DNA of 23,852 bases from a virus. Lineage: Duplodnaviria; Heunggongvirae; Uroviricota; Caudoviricetes. The number at the start of each line of letters is the position of its first letter. Positions within the stretch are counted from its first letter, which is position 1. The notes under the pieces are model-generated. The model was not told the origin of the DNA. It saw only the letters and a list, made by a program, of their open reading frames with translations, and searched no databases. Below, one piece after another: positions 1-14,629 of the stretch. Position numbers and translations under genes: made by a program. The stretch lies in IMG/VR virus record IMGVR_UViG_2585427740_000001; one strand, given 5' to 3'.

Positions 1-1284
1 TTACTTCTTCGCCTCTGCAACCACTTTACTACCCACGCCGCGGTTATTGTATTCCCACATGCGGTTGTAGTTAGTGTCATTCAGATTGCGCTGTATTTCG
101 TCGTTATCATCTACGCTGCCGGTATTACCCGCAAACGGACGATTAGAGATCACCGCATCGGCCCACGGTTTAGCCGTGTTAAAACCTTCGTTGATGGCGC
201 TATCACGGATCACCACCTGACCGTTGGTATTGGCATCAACATCCAGCGAGCGGCCCAGTTGCGCCACACCATCACCGAAAGCATTGAAACGGCTGTTTAC
301 GGCGAGGAAACCGTAGTAAATGTTGGACAGCGTAGCCGGTGCAAACACATACGCTTCTTGCTGAGTACGTGAGTTCACCACGCGGAATTCGGTGTTATCG
401 AACACCACTGCGCCGCGACCAGAAACGATATCCACATCCCCTTCAATGTAGCTGTTGGTCACCAGCGTACGCGGCTGACGATTTGTTTCCAGACGGTTCT
501 GCACACCGCTGTTGGTGACAAAGAAGGTGTTCTGACGACCGAGAATGTTAACGTTGTTAATCTGTACCTGGTCACCATCAGTACGCAGTGCCACCGCCGG
601 ATGGTTACCTGCATCTACGCTATCGCCCAGCGTGTTTTCGATGGTCAGATTTTGCAGTTGCAGGCCATTGTTTTGTGACCAGAAGACCGCAGAGCAGAGA
701 ACACCGATACTGTCGCTGCGTTTGCTCTGGCAGCTATCGTACATATACCACGCTGGTTTACCTGGCATATATTTGCCGCGCGGGTTGACGTCGTGACGCC
801 AGTCGGCAGGGCTCATGCCACCATCAAGGGAAAGCCCAATCTTCACATCAATCGGTTTTTCACCTGTACCGTACAGAGTAATTCCACCCGGAGCGGCAGG
901 GACATATACCGTTCCCTGATACTCACCAGGCATCACGGCAATATACTGGCGCTTGTTGGTACGCTTGATAATTGCCGCATCTACCGCCGCCTGAATCGTG
1001 GTATGCGTTACACCTTGAGTGCCCGCCGGGCCGACAACAAAGTCAGGTTGCGCAGGCAGGGTAATCGGGGAAGGATTCCACGCTGCAGCACCTGGTGTCA
1101 GGGATGCAAAATAGTGTTGAGCATCGAAATTCTGCGCTTCTTTTGCCGACAGAATCGGGCGAGAAGAGGTACCAGGCGCGGTTTGATCAGAAGGACGTTG
1201 ATCGGGCGGGGTTGAGCTACAGGCGGTCAGCGTCACGCCAAAAGCCAATGCCAGCGCCAGACGGGAAACTGAAAATGTGTTCAC
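1..1284 (-). CDS. ybhC: YbhC-like outer-membrane lipoprotein (pectinesterase / acyl-CoA thioesterase family); chromosomal flank of the lambda attachment site
   Basis: 427-aa ORF complete in window (stop at 1-3). N-terminal signal peptide with lipobox LTAC. Sequence recalled as E. coli YbhC, which borders attB-lambda. Confidence 0.88.
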   Translation of the reverse strand: MNTFSVSRLALALAFGVTLTACSSTPPDQRPSDQTAPGTSSRPILSAKEAQNFDAQHYFASLTPGAAAWNPSPITLPAQPDFVVGPAGTQGVTHTTIQAAVDAAIIKRTNKRQYIAVMPGEYQGTVYVPAAPGGITLYGTGEKPIDVKIGLSLDGGMSPADWRHDVNPRGKYMPGKPAWYMYDSCQSKRSDSIGVLCSAVFWSQNNGLQLQNLTIENTLGDSVDAGNHPAVALRTDGDQVQINNVNILGRQNTFFVTNSGVQNRLETNRQPRTLVTNSYIEGDVDIVSGRGAVVFDNTEFRVVNSRTQQEAYVFAPATLSNIYYGFLAVNSRFNAFGDGVAQLGRSLDVDANTNGQVVIRDSAINEGFNTAKPWADAVISNRPFAGNTGSVDDNDEIQRNLNDTNYNRMWEYNNRGVGSKVVAEAKK

Positions 1285-1330
1285 AGGTTGCTCCGGGCTA
1301 TGAAATAGAAAAATGAATCCGTTGAAGCCT

Positions 1331-1418
1331 GCTTTTTTATACTAAGTTGGCATTATAAAAAAGCATTGCTTATCAATTTGTTGCAACGAACAGGTCACTA
1401 TCAGTCAAAATAAAATCA
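1331..1418. other. attL: lambda-type attL: 15-bp common core GCTTTTTTATACTAA (1331-1345) followed by the P' arm with arm-type Int sites, running up to the int stop codon
   Basis: Exact lambda att core read directly in the sequence. The downstream AT-rich arm (GTTGGCATTATAAAAAAGCATTGCTTATCAATTTGTTGCAACGAACAGGTCACTATCAGTCAAAATAAAATCATTATTTG) matches the recalled attP P' arm. The bacterial side is contiguous with the ybhC 3' flank. Confidence 0.9.
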
Positions 1419-2489
1419 TTATTTGATTTCAATTTTGTCCCACTCCCTGCCTCTGTCATCACGATACTGTGATGCCATGGTGTCCGACTTATGCCCGAGA
1501 AGATGTTGAGCAAATTTATCGCTTATCTGCTTCTCATAGAGTCTTGCAGACAAACTGCGCAACTCGTGAAAGGTTGGCGGATCCCCTTCGAAGGAGAGAC
1601 CTGATGCTTTTCGTGCGCGCATAAAATACCTTGATACTGTGCCGGATGAAAGCGGTTCACGACGAGTAGATGCAATTATGGTTTCTCCGCCAAGAATCTT
1701 TTTGCATTTATCAAGTGTTTCCTTCATTGATATCCCGAGAGCATCAACATGCAATGTTGTTGGGATGGCAATTTTTACGCCTGTTTTGCTTTGCTCGACA
1801 TAAAGATATCCATCTACGATATCAGACCACTTCATTTCGCATAAATCACCAACTCGCTGCCCGGTAACAACAGCCAGTTCCATTGCAAGTCTAAGCCAAC
1901 ATGGTGATGATTCTGCTGCTTGATAAATTTTCAGGTATTCGTCAGCCGTAAGTCTTGATCTCCTTACCTCTGATTTTGCAGCGCGAGTGGCTGCGACCGG
2001 GTTTGTTGTTATATGGCCTTCAGCCATAGCCTCTCGGAATGCATCGCTCAGTGTTGATCTGATTAACTTGGCTGATGCCGCCTTTCCCTCGTCTATGTAT
2101 CCATTGAGCATTGCCGCAATTTCTTTTGTGGTGATGTCTTCAAGTGGAGCATCAGGCAGACCCCTCCTTATTGCTTTAATTTTGCTCATGTAATTTATGA
2201 GTGTCTTCTGCTTGATTCCTCTGCTGGCCAGGATTTTTTCGTAGCGATCAAGCCATGAATGTAACGTAACGGAATTATCACTGTTGATTCTCGCTGTCAG
2301 AGGCTTGTGTTTGTGTCCTGAAAATAACTCAATGTTGGCCTGTATAGCTTCAGTGATTGCGATTCGCCTGTCTCGGCCTAATCCAAACTCTTTACCCGTC
2401 CTTGGGTCCCTGTAGCAGTAATATCCATTGTTTCTTATATAAAGGTTAGGGGGTAAATCCCGGCGCTCATGACTTCGCCTTCTTCCCAT
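1419..2489 (-). CDS. int: Phage lambda integrase (tyrosine recombinase)
   Basis: 356-aa ORF whose translation (MGRRRSHERRDLPPNLYIRNNGYY...) matches lambda Int as recalled. Sits adjacent to attL P' arm and overlaps xis. Confidence 0.97.
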   Translation of the reverse strand: MGRRRSHERRDLPPNLYIRNNGYYCYRDPRTGKEFGLGRDRRIAITEAIQANIELFSGHKHKPLTARINSDNSVTLHSWLDRYEKILASRGIKQKTLINYMSKIKAIRRGLPDAPLEDITTKEIAAMLNGYIDEGKAASAKLIRSTLSDAFREAMAEGHITTNPVAATRAAKSEVRRSRLTADEYLKIYQAAESSPCWLRLAMELAVVTGQRVGDLCEMKWSDIVDGYLYVEQSKTGVKIAIPTTLHVDALGISMKETLDKCKKILGGETIIASTRREPLSSGTVSRYFMRARKASGLSFEGDPPTFHELRSLSARLYEKQISDKFAQHLLGHKSDTMASQYRDDRGREWDKIEIK

Positions 2490-6861: not shown

Positions 6862-7306
6862 GCTGCCACCTTCTGCTCAGTGGCTTTCTGTTTCAGGAAT
6901 CCAAGAGCTTTCACTGCTTCGGCCTGTGTCAGTTCTGACGATGCGCGAATGTCGCGGCGAAATATCTGGGAACAGAGCGGCAATAAGTCGTCATCCCATG
7001 TTTTGTCCAGGGCAATCAGCAGAGTGTTAATCTCCTGCATGGTTTCATCGTTAACCGGAGTAATGTCGCGTTCCGGCTGACGTTCTGCGGTGTATGCGGT
7101 ATTTTCGACAATGCGCTCGGCTTCATCCTTGTCATAGATACCAGCAAATCCGAAGGCCAGACGGGCACACTGAATCATGGCTTTATGCCGTAACATCCGT
7201 TTGGGATGCGACTGCCACGGCCCCGTAATTTCTCTGCCTTCGCGGGTTTTGAATGGTTCGCGGCGGCATTCATCCATCCATTCGGTAACGCAGATCGGAT
7301 GATTAC
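6858..7306 (-). pseudogene. bet: bet (Red-beta), 5'-truncated: only the C-terminal ~145 codons remain
   Basis: Translation from ...NHPICVTEWMDECRREPFKTREGREITGPWQSHPKRMLRH... to the C-terminus matches lambda Bet as recalled. The N-terminal ~115 codons are absent and the frame runs into ren-derived sequence on the opposite strand. Confidence 0.88.
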
Positions 7307-7426
7307 CGGTTCGCTACCAGGGAAGAACGGGAAGGAAAGGTGAGCACGAATCTGATTTTCAAGGAGTGTCGCCAGAGTGCCGCGATGAAGCGGGTGTTGG
7401 CATTTTATCGCGGCAATTTTCAATAG
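7304..7426 (+). pseudogene. ren: ren 3' fragment (last ~40 codons: YRFATREEREGKVSTNLIFKECRQSAAMKRVLAFYRGNFQ*)
   Basis: Plus-strand frame matches the recalled C-terminus of lambda Ren (...YYRFATREEREGKMSTNLVFKECRQSAAMKRVLAVYGVKR). It begins abruptly at the bet breakpoint. Confidence 0.7.
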
Positions 7427-7463
7427 ACTATGTACATAAAAATATCATTTTTTTAATACATGT

Positions 7464-7655
7464 CTAATTATTGGACGAAATTGGTTTTTGCTTTGGTTTA
7501 GTTAGCCTAGCAATCAAGCCAGAGGCAATAATGATGATCCAAGCAATTTGATGCAATGCTACTCCAATATAAGAACCTTTATAGATAATAAAGGCATAGA
7601 TCGCTAGAAACGAAATAAATATCCATAACGAAAGTTGATAAATTTTGGCGCGCAT
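7464..7655 (-). CDS. Possible small two-helix membrane protein (63 aa) in AT-rich insert
   Basis: ORF with two hydrophobic stretches; no convincing RBS; AT-rich DNA can yield spurious ORFs. Confidence 0.3.
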   Translation of the reverse strand: MRAKIYQLSLWIFISFLAIYAFIIYKGSYIGVALHQIAWIIIIASGLIARLTKPKQKPISSNN

Positions 7656-7911
7656 ATTTAATCCAATCAATCAGAAAGACGAGTAATCATAGAGGTACTA
7701 TCACCCGGGTAACTATTGCTATTATGAACGGATAGGATAGAGGCTTCAATAACATATGCATCAAGTATGATGGAATATGTAGGTGAAAATGACTTGTGTC
7801 AAATTTGTGGAAATGAGTACCATGTTTCTCTGAAATTGATGTCGTTAATGGCTAGTGATAGTGAACTTTTTTACTTTATAATTCCTTTGGTTATAACAAT
7901 AAGGTAAATTT

Positions 7912-8472
7912 ATGAAGAAGATAATATTATTAGCCATGATTATTGGTTCTTTAACAGGTTGCGCTAGTGTGCCACCATTGAATTTTTCAACACCTAACGT
8001 GGGAGTTAGCCAGAAAAAAATAGATGCTGAAATTAAGTCATTAACGGTATCACTTGCTCGTCCAGATGAGCAGAAAGGGGATATCACTGCTGGTATGGAG
8101 GCTATAACTCCAATTTGGCGTGAATCTTTGCAGGAAGCACTCGACCGAATGACTATTTTTCGTGATAGTTCACCAAATACGGTTAGCTTAAATGTTAAAG
8201 TGTTGGCTCTTGACGTTCCTGCTTTTGGTGTTTCAATGACAACTAAAGCAATTGCAAGGTATGAAATAATCAACCGTGCGAATGGTGATATTATATATAC
8301 GCAGGATATTGAGTCTACCGGTACTGTTCCAGCCAGTTACGCATTCTACGGTATTGTTCGAGCACGCGAATCTGTTAATCGCGCGGTGCAAAACAACATA
8401 ACGCAGTTCTTGCAAGCATTAGAAAGTGTTGATCTTTCTCGTCCAATGTTTCCTGTTAGGGTAGCTAAATGA
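7912..8472 (+). CDS. Lipoprotein, 186 aa (signal peptide with lipobox LTGC); function unknown
   Basis: MKKIILLAMIIGSLTGCAS... lipobox; AAGG RBS about 9 nt upstream. Stop overlaps the start of the next gene (ATGA). Confidence 0.8.
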   Translation: MKKIILLAMIIGSLTGCASVPPLNFSTPNVGVSQKKIDAEIKSLTVSLARPDEQKGDITAGMEAITPIWRESLQEALDRMTIFRDSSPNTVSLNVKVLALDVPAFGVSMTTKAIARYEIINRANGDIIYTQDIESTGTVPASYAFYGIVRARESVNRAVQNNITQFLQALESVDLSRPMFPVRVAK

Positions 8473-8921
8473 AGCGATTATTCGTAATTGCTCCACTCTT
8501 AGTGTTGGTTGGATGCGCACAAAATATATCGCCAAATAGTTATTCTGTTGGCTCTGTGGGCATGGTTAATCGAACTATCGCTGGTACAGTTATTAGTGCT
8601 AGGGGGGTTGATATCAGTGGGACTTCCGCGTTAGGCGGGACTGCTGGGGCTGCCGTGGGGGCAACCGCTGGTTCTGCGCTTGGTGGGGGAGTTCGTTCTA
8701 ATATCGTTGGTGCCGTTGGTGGTGCAGTCATTGGTGGTATTGCCGGGGCAGCAATCGAATCTTCAGCAACAAAACAAACAGGCATGGAATATGTTGTCGA
8801 AACTGAGAATGGGAATTTAATGACCATTGTTCAAGGCAAAGATCCGTTATTTACTCAAGGAAGTAAGGTCCTTGTTTTATACGGAAACCCTTCTCGCATA
8901 ATAACAGACCCGCGTCACTAA
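8469..8921 (+). CDS. SlyB/Pcp-like outer-membrane lipoprotein with glycine-zipper segment, 150 aa
   Basis: Lipobox LVGCAQ. Long Gly/Ala-rich zipper (GGTAGAAVGATAGSALGGGVRSNIVGAVGGAVIGGIAGAAIE) and a C-terminal region resembling SlyB as recalled. Translationally coupled to the upstream lipoprotein. Confidence 0.8.
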   Translation: MKRLFVIAPLLVLVGCAQNISPNSYSVGSVGMVNRTIAGTVISARGVDISGTSALGGTAGAAVGATAGSALGGGVRSNIVGAVGGAVIGGIAGAAIESSATKQTGMEYVVETENGNLMTIVQGKDPLFTQGSKVLVLYGNPSRIITDPRH

Positions 8922-9111
8922 CATACCTTTTGATTTTGTAAAATCAATTCGTAATAATAAAGTCATCGGAGCTTGAACAACTCCGGTGACTTCTGCGCTA
9001 AACGGGGACGTTTATGCGCACATACAATCCAAACTCTCTTCTCCCTTCACAGATGCAGAAATGCACCTGCGATTTTTTGCATCCAGCGTCTGACCTCTGC
9101 GGAGGTGAAGC

Positions 9112-9567
9112 GTGAACCTACCACAAGATGGCATCAAACTGCATCGCGGTAACTTCACCGCTATCGGCCAGCAGATCCAGCCTTATCTGGAGGACGGAAA
9201 ATGCTTTCGCATGGTGCTTAAACCGTGGCGTGAGAAACGCAGTCTTTCCCAGAATGCACTCAGCCACATGTGGTACAGCGAAATCAGTGAATACCTCATC
9301 AGCAGGGGGAAATCGTTCGCTACCGCAGCATGGGTAAAAGATGCTCTCAAACACACATACCTCGGTTATGAAACCAAGGACCTGGTTGATGTCGTAACCG
9401 GCGAAATCACTACTATCCAGTCGTTACGCCATACCTCCGATCTTGATACCGGAGAGATGTATATCTTCCTGTGTAAGGTTGAAGCCTGGGCGGTGAATAT
9501 TGGCTGCCACCTGACTATTCCGCAGAGCTGCGAGTTCCAGCAGCTCCGCGACAAACAGGAGGCGTAA
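9112..9567 (+). CDS. ybcN: NinB/YbcN-family DNA-binding protein
   Basis: 151-aa ORF from GTG with GGAGGTGA RBS. Translation matches DLP12 YbcN as recalled; sits in the NinB position of the nin region. Confidence 0.85.
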
Positions 9568-11173: not shown

Positions 11174-12256
11174 TTAGAACTGGTAAACCATACCTACAGC
11201 AACGATATCATCGGTAGCAACGCCAGATGCTTTCGTGAAATCGCTCTTATCAATCAGGTTGATTTTGTAATCAACAAAAGTGGACATATTTTTGTTGAAG
11301 TAATAGGTTGCACCTACATCAATATATTCAACCAGGTCCTGATCACCCCACGCACCCAAGTCTTTTCCTTTAGATTGCAGGTAAGCAACGGACGGACGCA
11401 GACCGAAGTCGAACTGATATTGTGCAACTACTTCGAAGTTTTGTGCTTTGTTGGCAATATGGTTATTACCAAAAACAGTCATGTTCTGGGTTTCAGAATA
11501 GGTGGTAGCCAGATAGATGTTGTTCGCATCATATTTCAGACCAGCTGCCCATACTTCAGCATTTTGACCAGATGCATTCAGGCTGTTGTTACCGTAGATA
11601 ACCTGATTATTAGTGCGGTCAGATTTAGCATAGGTTGCACCTACACCGAATCCTTCATACTCATAAGTAGTGGAGAAACCGAAACCATCACCATTAGCTT
11701 CAGTTACGTCAGTGCGGTCATTTTTACCCTGATACTGAGCAGCAAAGTTCAGACCATCAACCAGACCAAAGAAGTCATTGTTACGATAAGTTGCAACACC
11801 TGTGGTGCGACCAGTCATGAATACATCTGTTTGGGTCCAGGTATCGCCACCGAATTCTGGCAGAACGTCGGTCCATGCACCAATATCGTATGCTACACCG
11901 TAGTTACGGCCATAATCGATGGAGCCGTAGTCACCGAATTTCAGGCCAGCGAAGGCAAGACGGGTTTTATCTTTGGAGGAACCTTGAGATTCAGCGCGGT
12001 TGCCTTTGAATTCATATTCCCACTGACCGAAACCAGTCAGTTGATCGTTGATTTGGGTTTCACCTTTGAAGCCAAGACGGGCATAAGTAGTATCACCATC
12101 ATCTGCATCATTAGAGGAGAAGTAGTGCTTAGCATTAACTTTCCCGTACAGATCCAGCTTGTTACTGTCTTTATTATAAATTTCAGCTGCCTGAGCAGAC
12201 ATCGCCATCAGTACTGATGCAGCTACAGCAGAAATTGCCACTGTTAATTTTTTCAT
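11174..12256 (-). CDS. nmpC: General porin of the OmpC/OmpF/NmpC(Lc) family
   Basis: 360 aa from [23 protein letters not shown] (signal peptide) to the C-terminal ...VGMVYQF. Resembles NmpC/Lc as recalled. The ORF-track ORF extends 20 codons further upstream, judged spurious. Confidence 0.92.
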
Positions 12257-12682
12257 CGTGAGCCCTTTTTTTGAACTATTATTAAAAAATGATGTCACTG
12301 CGCGATAAATATTCATCTAATCAATGTGATTATTTCAAGATGTAAGTTTTGGTTTCTCATTTGATTTGTGAAGTAGATCTCTATTTTTATCTGAACTTTT
12401 TCTATCGAATCCTATTCATGGCTCTTGGCTGAATAAAAATAAATCTATTAGCCAATTTATATTAATGGCTGTTATTTATAAGTGCTCTATAATTTGAAGA
12501 TTCAATTTAAACCAGCTAAAAATAACGCTGGAAATTATTTGTTGGTTATTTGTTGAGATTTGCTTATGTATTTGTAGTGGTGTTTTCAATACTCGGTAGC
12601 ATTCTCGCAAATATCATTTAGTGGTTTACGTACGTAAAAAATTGGTTATGCTGTTAAGAGTGGTTACTTCGTCACACAGCTT

Positions 12683-14045: not shown

Positions 14046-14339
14046 TTATTGTGAGCAATACACACGCGCTTCCAGCGGAGTATAAATGCCTAAAGTAATA
14101 AAACCGAGCAATCCATTTACGAATGTTTGCTGGGTTTCTGTTTTAACAACATTTTCTGCGCCGCCACAAATTTTGGCTGCATCGACAGTTTTCTTCTGCC
14201 CAATTCCAGAAACGAAGAAATGATGGGTGATGGTTTCCTTTGGTGCTACTGCTGCCGGTTTGTTTTGAACAGTAAACGTCTGTTGAGCACATCCTGTAAT
14301 AAGCAGGGCCAGCGCAGTAGCGAGTAGCATTTTTTTCAT
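14046..14339 (-). CDS. bor: Bor lipoprotein (serum-resistance-associated)
   Basis: 97-aa translation MKKMLLATALALLITGCAQQTFTVQNKPAAVAPKETITHHFFVSGIGQKK... matches lambda Bor as recalled. Confidence 0.92.
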   Translation of the reverse strand: MKKMLLATALALLITGCAQQTFTVQNKPAAVAPKETITHHFFVSGIGQKKTVDAAKICGGAENVVKTETQQTFVNGLLGFITLGIYTPLEARVYCSQ

Positions 14340-14629
14340 GGTGTTATTCCCGATGCTTTTTGAAGTTCGCAGAATCGTATGTGTAGAAAATTAAACAAAC
14401 CCTAAACAATGAGTTGAAATTTCATATTGTTAATATTTATTAATGTATGTCAGGTGCGATGAATCGTCATTGTATTCCCGGATTAACTATGTCCACAGCC
14501 CTGACGGGGAACTTCTCTGCGGGAGTGTCCGGGAATAATTAAAAACGATGCACACAGGGTTTAGCGCGTACACGTATTGCATTATGCCAACGCCCCGGTG
14601 CTGACACGGAAGAAACCGGACGTTATGAT

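Follow-up and report, generated by a model that had tools for sequence, protein, structure and literature searches.

A two-lipoprotein cassette in the ren-nin cargo slot of a cryptic lambdoid prophage: a probable mobile outer-membrane module that pairs a SlyB-like protein with a dedicated partner

The 23,852-nucleotide stretch of viral DNA analyzed here (IMG/VR record IMGVR_UViG_2585427740_000001; hereafter the window) is a cryptic lambdoid (lambda-like) prophage of Escherichia coli that carries two overlapping lipoprotein genes between the remnant of ren and ybcN, the first gene of its nin region; we call their products P1 and P2. We propose, at a probability of roughly 55%, that these genes form a self-contained 1.5-kb moron in the ren-nin slot, encoding an ancient, horizontally mobile outer-membrane module in which a SlyB-like lipoprotein is joined by a dedicated partner and which serves in lysogenic conversion. 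Judged from sequence comparisons, what appears to be new is a SlyB-type system with an undescribed, nearly obligate partner that phages have repeatedly captured.

The two genes lie on the same strand and share an ATGA start/stop overlap (Table 1); their coordinates, their reading as lipoprotein genes and the translational coupling suggested by that overlap, as described in an earlier note written from the bare DNA letters, were all confirmed. P1 opens with a signal peptide and the lipobox ...SLTG-C17-A-S, and P2 with a signal peptide and the lipobox MKRLFVIAPLLVLVG-C16-AQN (...VLVG-C16), in which C16 is invariant in 24 homologues. Under the established +2 sorting rule, the residue after the lipidated cysteine decides the destination of a lipoprotein; since this residue is alanine, not aspartate, in both P1 and P2, both are predicted to be sorted to the outer membrane. 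Each protein has hundreds of homologues, and comparison with these indicates that both are real genes under strong purifying selection and not chance open reading frames (ORFs), with nonsynonymous divergence (pN) at 0.10 to 0.24 and synonymous divergence (pS) at 0.70 to 0.87, the latter saturated.

P2 is, on the strength of profile and pairwise alignments, a full-length, divergent homologue of SlyB, in keeping with the SlyB-like label that it had been given at first sight. A profile built from 24 P2 homologues aligns its positions 2 to 150 with 3 to 155 of the solved structure of SlyB (PDB 7ojf; 7ojg is a further SlyB entry), at an E value of 4.1e-15, and P2 itself aligns over its full length with K-12 SlyB (b1641) in BLASTP (33% identity; E value of 7e-13), while an hhalign comparison with E. 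coli YfgH returns a probability of 97%. The parts also come in the same order as in SlyB. The lipobox is followed by an N-terminal strand region and then by a pair of GxxxG helices, which a GGGxRS turn connects, and beta strands make up the C-terminal part. The glycine ladders of P2 (G56-60-64-68-72 and G81-85-89-93) and the turn between them are invariant or nearly so, many of its homologues carry PF13488 or PF05433, and its AlphaFold2 monomer model shows, in order and with low confidence, a strand, a helical hairpin (helices 55 to 71 and 75 to 101), and C-terminal strands. SlyB is described as assembling into disc-like oligomers around lipid nanodomains and outer-membrane proteins, and the same has been proposed for YfgH (bioRxiv 10.64898/2025.12.22.696046; bioRxiv 10.64898/2026.06.08.730324). 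P2, which belongs to phrog_13877, nevertheless differs from both of these relatives. It has invariant motifs of its own, ISPNxYSVGSVG near the N terminus and LVLYGxPSRxIxDPR near the C terminus, and its gene lies nearly always 3' of, and overlapping, that for P1, whereas slyB stands alone beside slyA and yfgH is followed by yfgI, the gene for an unrelated DUF5384 protein. Further, P2 is mobile and phage-borne, whereas SlyB is the product of a core gene.

P1 represents an undescribed family with a recognizable class of fold. Searches of Pfam, NCBIfam, and the PDB sequences with P1 returned only noise at the level of the signal peptide (a sub-threshold lipoprotein-signal match), and for ten remote relatives no Pfam family covers the region, so that the earlier remark that no family could be assigned to this protein stands at the level of sequence. 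The family is nonetheless large: clustering at 90% identity gives 512 groups, and at 50% identity there are 927 representatives (E value of at most 1e-3). The AlphaFold2 model of P1 (mean predicted local distance difference test score, pLDDT, 83; predicted template-modeling score, pTM, 0.77) displays a beta-alpha-beta-beta-beta-alpha domain, and comparison of this model places P1 in the alpha/beta fold class of the LptE, PqiC (DUF330, ABC_trans_aux), PelC, and CsgG lipoproteins, with structural identities of 8 to 15%. These are all periplasm-facing outer-membrane lipoproteins, several of which form rings under the outer membrane. P1 is unlike them in lacking a profile match, in the absence of the cognate LptD, PqiAB, PelB, and CsgEF genes from among its conserved neighbors, and in having its own conserved N-terminal tether and ARPDExKG loop. 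The tether (PPLNFSVPNVGVS) is highly conserved, and the 20 residues past the lipidated cysteine (PPLNFSVPNVGVSxKKIDAELKS) match the folded core in their conservation, which suggests that they are a binding segment. A search of BFVD for structures yielded no meaningful relative.

Several other identities for P1 were considered and set aside. A recent RefSeq label places it in the YajG family, and both are indeed enterobacterial lipoproteins of about 190 residues; but P1 has no match to PF03923 at an E value of at most 1 (YajG itself gives 3.4e-52), scores 11.4 bits on NCBIfam NF008637 against a cut-off of 242, and aligns with YajG by hhalign (probability of 76%) over just 51 N-terminal columns, that is, the signal peptide and about 35 mature residues. 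Older records name it a UDP-N-acetylglucosamine acyltransferase, for which no family or structure search made here gave any support. A relationship to YfgI, prompted by the chromosomal yfgH-yfgI pair, received an hhalign probability of 1%. At the far edge of the family, the stretch from 887 to 1794 of a TARA marine metagenome contig (L118) holds the gene for a remote P1 homologue (P0378; E value of 1.8e-21 to the family profile) with no SlyB-like partner; its gene overlaps by 4 nucleotides a downstream gene whose translation, read by eye, resembles a terminase small subunit with a helix-turn-helix.

The earlier note had let its proposal hang on whether the two genes are found together in any other genome, and they are. 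In a survey of one genome per species, which gave 62 loci with a relative of P1 from Gamma-, Beta-, and Alphaproteobacteria and a few other phyla, a P2 relative follows directly 3' of P1 on the same strand in 57, and the same order holds for 13 of the 16 diverged loci from viruses. The start/stop overlap recurs in 54 of the 69 pairs from other taxa that could be scored, as a 4-nucleotide RTGA in 47 and as a single shared nucleotide in 7, with a maximum spacing of 26 nucleotides. The pairwise distance matrices of the two proteins are correlated (r of 0.89; Mantel p of 0.001), pointing to co-divergence, and identities for both stay at 55 to 70% across the three proteobacterial classes. Clustering of all ORFs neighboring the 62 loci brought up no third conserved gene, and among the long matches P0248, P0250, P0303, P0326, and P0243 none is a P1-P2 fusion with a SlyB-like part. 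By these sequence comparisons, P1 and P2 constitute a conserved, co-inherited unit.

This unit is also mobile. Within E. coli, it is present as a single allele (at least 99.8% identity) in 280 of 5,426 complete genomes, about 5%, always on the chromosome and never on a plasmid, with 279 of the 280 copies spanning 80% or more of the operon at that identity. In an intact argU-integrated prophage (L001), the cassette occupies the same ren-ybcN position after an intact ren, and the isolated, inducible, plaque-forming phage PhiR30_1 has it in the same slot; no other of the 50,697 phage records carries it. A Salmonella lambdoid prophage bears the pair (72% and 65% identity) in the equivalent replication-nin slot, where it is flanked by four toxin-antitoxin modules (ParE/PaaA2, MazE/PemK, YoeB/YefM, and HigB). 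In a Pantoea-type prophage, it sits between the tape-measure gene and a gpM-like tail gene, and in high-GC prophages it lies beside a cI-like repressor, so that unrelated prophages carry the pair at three different positions. Most copies across bacteria, though, lie outside phages. Some are on islands, beside integrases or toxin-antitoxin genes, and others are in ordinary chromosomal surroundings in Klebsiella oxytoca, Xanthomonas, Stenotrophomonas, and a metagenomic chromosome; in the last three, the vicinity is free of phage genes. A fixed chromosomal position in Stenotrophomonas, suggested by ispH, lspA, and TonB-receptor neighbors, was dropped from consideration, as this arrangement occurs only in the one source locus. 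A locus from an assembly labeled Nocardiopsis yanglingensis, an actinobacterium (L025), has the same P1-P2 coordinates and identities as some Stenotrophomonas maltophilia loci, and its P1-P2 contig is probably a contaminant.

In the window, the insert has the hallmarks of a moron. Compared by blastn with the DLP12 prophage of K-12, homology is lost at 7399, near the end of the ren remnant that forms the left backbone boundary, and is regained at 8928, seven bases past the P2 stop codon. The foreign segment thus runs from about 7400 to 8927, some 1.5 kb; its position between ren and ybcN had been read correctly in the earlier note, whose figure of 1.7 kb took in backbone DNA 5' of ybcN. The AT-rich composition reported there also holds, with a guanine-plus-cytosine (GC) fraction of 0.33 over 7400 to 8000 against 0.50 to 0.54 in the flanks. 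By part, it rises from 0.32 in the leader to 0.405 in P1 and 0.472 in P2. DLP12 has other cargo at the same position, namely emrE-ylcJ-ybcK-ybcL-ybcM (L066, 4213 to 8282), so the ren-ybcN gap is a variable cargo slot, or hot spot. The segment is therefore a moron in the usual sense of extra DNA between backbone genes, at a place where K-12 differs and with a GC fraction of 0.32 to 0.47 against about 0.52 in the flanks. A repeat search brought up no direct or inverted repeats on either side of the kind that signal transposition or site-specific (att-type) insertion; the sole candidate, a 13-nucleotide two-copy match, is probably due to chance. The cassette resembles bor, which lies on the same prophage, lom, cor of phi80 and N15, and llp of T5 in being small, compositionally deviant cargo between phage genes that codes for outer-membrane proteins. 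It differs from them in having two coupled genes instead of one and in lacking sequence or clear structural similarity to their products.

Taking these findings together, we postulate that P1 and P2 both receive a lipid anchor and are delivered to the outer membrane, where the glycine-zipper hairpin of P2 would insert into the membrane and P2 would form SlyB-like rings that fence in lipid together with outer-membrane proteins, stabilizing the membrane under envelope stress. P1, made in fixed proportion to P2 by way of the start/stop overlap, might act as its dedicated partner, docking either on the side of the P2 assembly that faces the periplasm or on a client of P2 through its LptE/PqiC/PelC-type fold. 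With the early promoters of the phage lost to the deletion described below, any expression of the cassette would have to begin within its own leader. The cassette could then raise the envelope robustness of the lysogen as a lysogenic-conversion factor, like the bor gene of the same prophage. Phage-free chromosomal settings and the 55 to 70% identity across classes fit such a general envelope function better than a receptor-specific exclusion.

A number of observations weigh against this proposal. In two E. coli strains that both retain an intact P2 (L116, NZ_CP087564, and L117, NZ_CP098858), separate events have disrupted P1: the nonsense change Q34* (C8011T) in one and insertion of the insertion sequence IS5, which splits the gene, in the other. 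Conversely, P1 occurs without P2 in 5 of the 62 loci (Photorhabdus, Budvicia, Brachymonas, and Massilia), in three viral loci, and in the marine contig; hence, P1 is not strictly dependent on P2. Canonical SlyB for its part needs no partner. It is also PhoP-regulated, and in the leader (7427 to 7911) we found no PhoP box with fewer than two mismatches, the total of matches being at chance level; the cassette thus departs from the PhoPQ control of canonical slyB, a feature that is typical of slyB but not strictly defining. The scores of P2 on the two glycine-zipper Pfam models, PF05433 and PF13488, remain sub-threshold (21.1 and 16.9 bits, for cut-offs of 24.2 and 25, respectively), and its monomer model has a pLDDT of just 63, although such low confidence would plausibly be natural for an oligomeric membrane protein. 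Contact between P1 and P2 is inferred from gene linkage only. As for transcription, a scan of the leader returned 6 promoter-like sites where 4.7 +/- 2.2 are expected, that is, no more than chance; H-NS commonly silences AT-rich foreign DNA in E. coli. With a chance-level promoter call and the prospect of such silencing, expression of the cassette in the lysogen is a presumption. Finally, the literature that we searched holds neither a description of the pair nor experimental data for either family.

The competing explanation that survives best, though we consider it unlikely, is superinfection exclusion or receptor masking, in which the two lipoproteins, acting at the outer membrane of the lysogen or of an infected cell, would keep competing phages from adsorbing or from passing in their DNA, or would prevent the loss of progeny on receptor-bearing debris. 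The earlier note had offered exclusion and an outer-membrane role as alternatives, and it is the envelope half that has gained support. The following would be expected of such a system: temperate phages with no relationship to one another have repeatedly captured the pair, and in various parts of the genome (the ren-nin slot in E. coli and Salmonella, the tail region in the Pantoea type, and beside the cI-like repressor in the high-GC type); a terminase-like gene adjoins the remote P1 homologue in the marine contig; and both proteins are predicted to lie in the outer membrane. Among known systems of this kind, Cor and Llp act on FhuA, and TraT acts in conjugation. Yet PADLOC finds no match, neither protein has sequence similarity to Cor, Llp, or TraT, and both PHROG families are listed as being of unknown function. 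The TraT Pfam model matches neither P1 nor P2, the match to TraT (PDB 9e2v) is weaker than that to the LptE/PelC-type proteins, and the TraT structure papers make no mention of SlyB or glycine zippers. Moreover, many copies reside in plain chromosomal contexts, only 1 of the 50,697 deposited phage genomes has the pair, and sequences are retained across three proteobacterial classes whose phages use different receptors, unlike what is seen in receptor-specific proteins. A bolder version that joins both ideas, and which we regard as more doubtful still, is a two-component SlyB nanodomain machine, with a P2 ring and P1 as its periplasmic cap or adaptor, deployed by temperate phages of Proteobacteria to corral receptors or porins, thereby providing superinfection exclusion or protection of progeny. 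If true, it would amount to a new, widespread class of phage-encoded outer-membrane remodeling system.

A further alternative, to which we give little weight, is that the pair functions in its original hosts but is a silent passenger in E. coli, hitchhiking, silenced, and slowly decaying, with no phenotype. It would agree with the lack of immunity and replication regions in the prophage of the window, with the AT-rich leader that is unique to E. coli and whose promoter call does not exceed chance, and with the two independent inactivations of P1 by Q34* and IS5; and the occurrence of a single, nearly invariant allele in so few genomes implies recent spread. Against this, all but one of the 280 E. 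coli copies are near-identical over four-fifths or more of the operon, the cassette survives in deletion derivatives stripped of most phage functions, and the same cassette is found in an inducible, plaque-forming phage. Least probable, and in our view quite unlikely, is an accessory role in lipid or lipopolysaccharide trafficking, with P1 as the outer-membrane end of a lipid route (as PqiC is with MCE proteins and LptE with LptD) and P2 as its anchor: SlyB-family biology is linked to outer-membrane lipid asymmetry, but no MCE, ATP-binding cassette (ABC), LptD-like, or other gene is conserved beside the pair in the 62 loci, Pfam scans of P1 and of remote members of its family gave none of these families at the level of sequence, structural identities to such proteins are as low as stated above, and a two-gene phage cassette could not provide the remaining machine.

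SlyB-type glycine-zipper lipoproteins have lately been recognized as stress-induced organizers of the outer membrane, with the part played by their paralogues as a further question. In this context, the cassette marks out a distinct SlyB subfamily that is widespread and linked to a partner lipoprotein for which there is no Pfam model, and its movement among chromosomes, islands, and at least three kinds of prophage makes it a compact and clonable test case. The questions that it can serve are how SlyB-like rings might gain specificity through partners and what a phage gains from remodeling the outer membrane of its host. On the practical side, the cassette is carried by about one in twenty complete E. 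coli genomes, and the acyltransferase and YajG family labels of P1 need correction.

Table 1. Features of the cassette and its surroundings (positions are those of the window)
Feature	Position	Strand	Basis or remark
ybhC, then lambda-type integrase with Arm-DNA-binding domain	1-2489		Left end of the prophage
exo and truncated bet		minus	Right of the integrase, left of the ren remnant
ren 3' remnant, last ~41 codons (last 125 nt)	7302-7426	plus	blastn against intact prophage L001 and K-12 DLP12; annotation of L001 and L116
AT-rich leader (32% GC, 485 nt)	7427-7911		E. coli copy only
Antisense small ORF with two hydrophobic stretches	7464-7670	minus	62 aa from ATG 7652, 68 aa from TTG 7670
Candidate sigma-70 promoter GTGATA-16-TATAAT	7855-7882		30 nt 5' of the P1 start
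P1, 186-aa lipoprotein	7912-8472	plus	ORF list, sequence
ATGA start/stop overlap of P1 and P2	8469-8472	plus	Sequence
P2, 150-aa lipoprotein	8469-8921	plus	ORF list, sequence
Backbone 5' of ybcN, outside the cargo	8928-9111	plus	97% identity to K-12 DLP12 (blastn)
Two hairpins in the backbone	8930-8947 and 8961-8991		Fold at -25.3 kcal/mol, z of -4.1
ylcH-like 33-codon ORF, backbone	9014-9115	plus	4-nt overlap with the ybcN start; hypothetical protein in RefSeq; K-12 counterpart ylcH
ybcN (NinB family), right-hand backbone gene	9112-9567	plus	ORF list; annotation of L001 and K-12
ybcN, ninE, ybcO, rusA, ylcG, Q antiterminator, porin gene, lysis genes, bor, ybcV, Nu1, tail-fibre genes			Right of the cargo
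Porin gene	11174-12316	minus	3' of the Q antiterminator gene; Porin_1, E value of 4e-153
bor	14046-14339	minus	
PhoP-box-like direct repeat	14392-14408	minus	53-69 nt 5' of the bor start

The leader has no DNA homology to the loci of any other taxon, and what the loci of different taxa have in common at the DNA level is confined to the two coding regions; a search of 7200 to 9300 against Rfam gave no match. The two hairpins just beyond the cargo may act as terminators of the P1-P2 transcript. The small ORF on the opposite strand of the leader, which the earlier note had listed as a possible membrane protein, does exist and has its hydrophobic stretches, but it falls outside the conserved module. 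Its homologues are near-identical E. coli copies only, none lies beside the pair in other taxa or genera, and it is left uncalled by the Prokaryotic Genome Annotation Pipeline (PGAP) in the intact prophage L001 while being called in phage PhiR30_1. AT-rich DNA readily gives rise to such small ORFs, and this one is best treated as a putative, unproven orphan.

The prophage of the window is integrated at the lambda attachment site, adjoining ybhC. Compared with its intact relative L001, it has lost the region from gam through gene P, and with it the immunity and replication regions, by a deletion that joins the truncated minus-strand bet to the ren remnant at about 7302 to 7306; the identical bet::ren junction is present in strain CM2010-0578/1. 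A near-identical right arm is also found in argU-integrated prophages with intD. Prophages at the ybhC and argU sites share this arm, and it follows that one cargo-bearing arm has been combined with different integration modules. The porin gene of the prophage is intact, whereas its K-12 counterpart, nmpC, is split by IS5, and the joint presence of a porin and a SlyB-like lipoprotein on one prophage is a coincidence of note. Upstream of bor lies a perfect direct repeat resembling a PhoP box, TGTTTAGGGTTTGTTTA, which is the only zero-mismatch match in the window. The gene borD is known to be PhoP-regulated, and judging from this repeat the bor lipoprotein of this prophage may be wired into PhoPQ, unlike the P1-P2 cassette, which has no such box.

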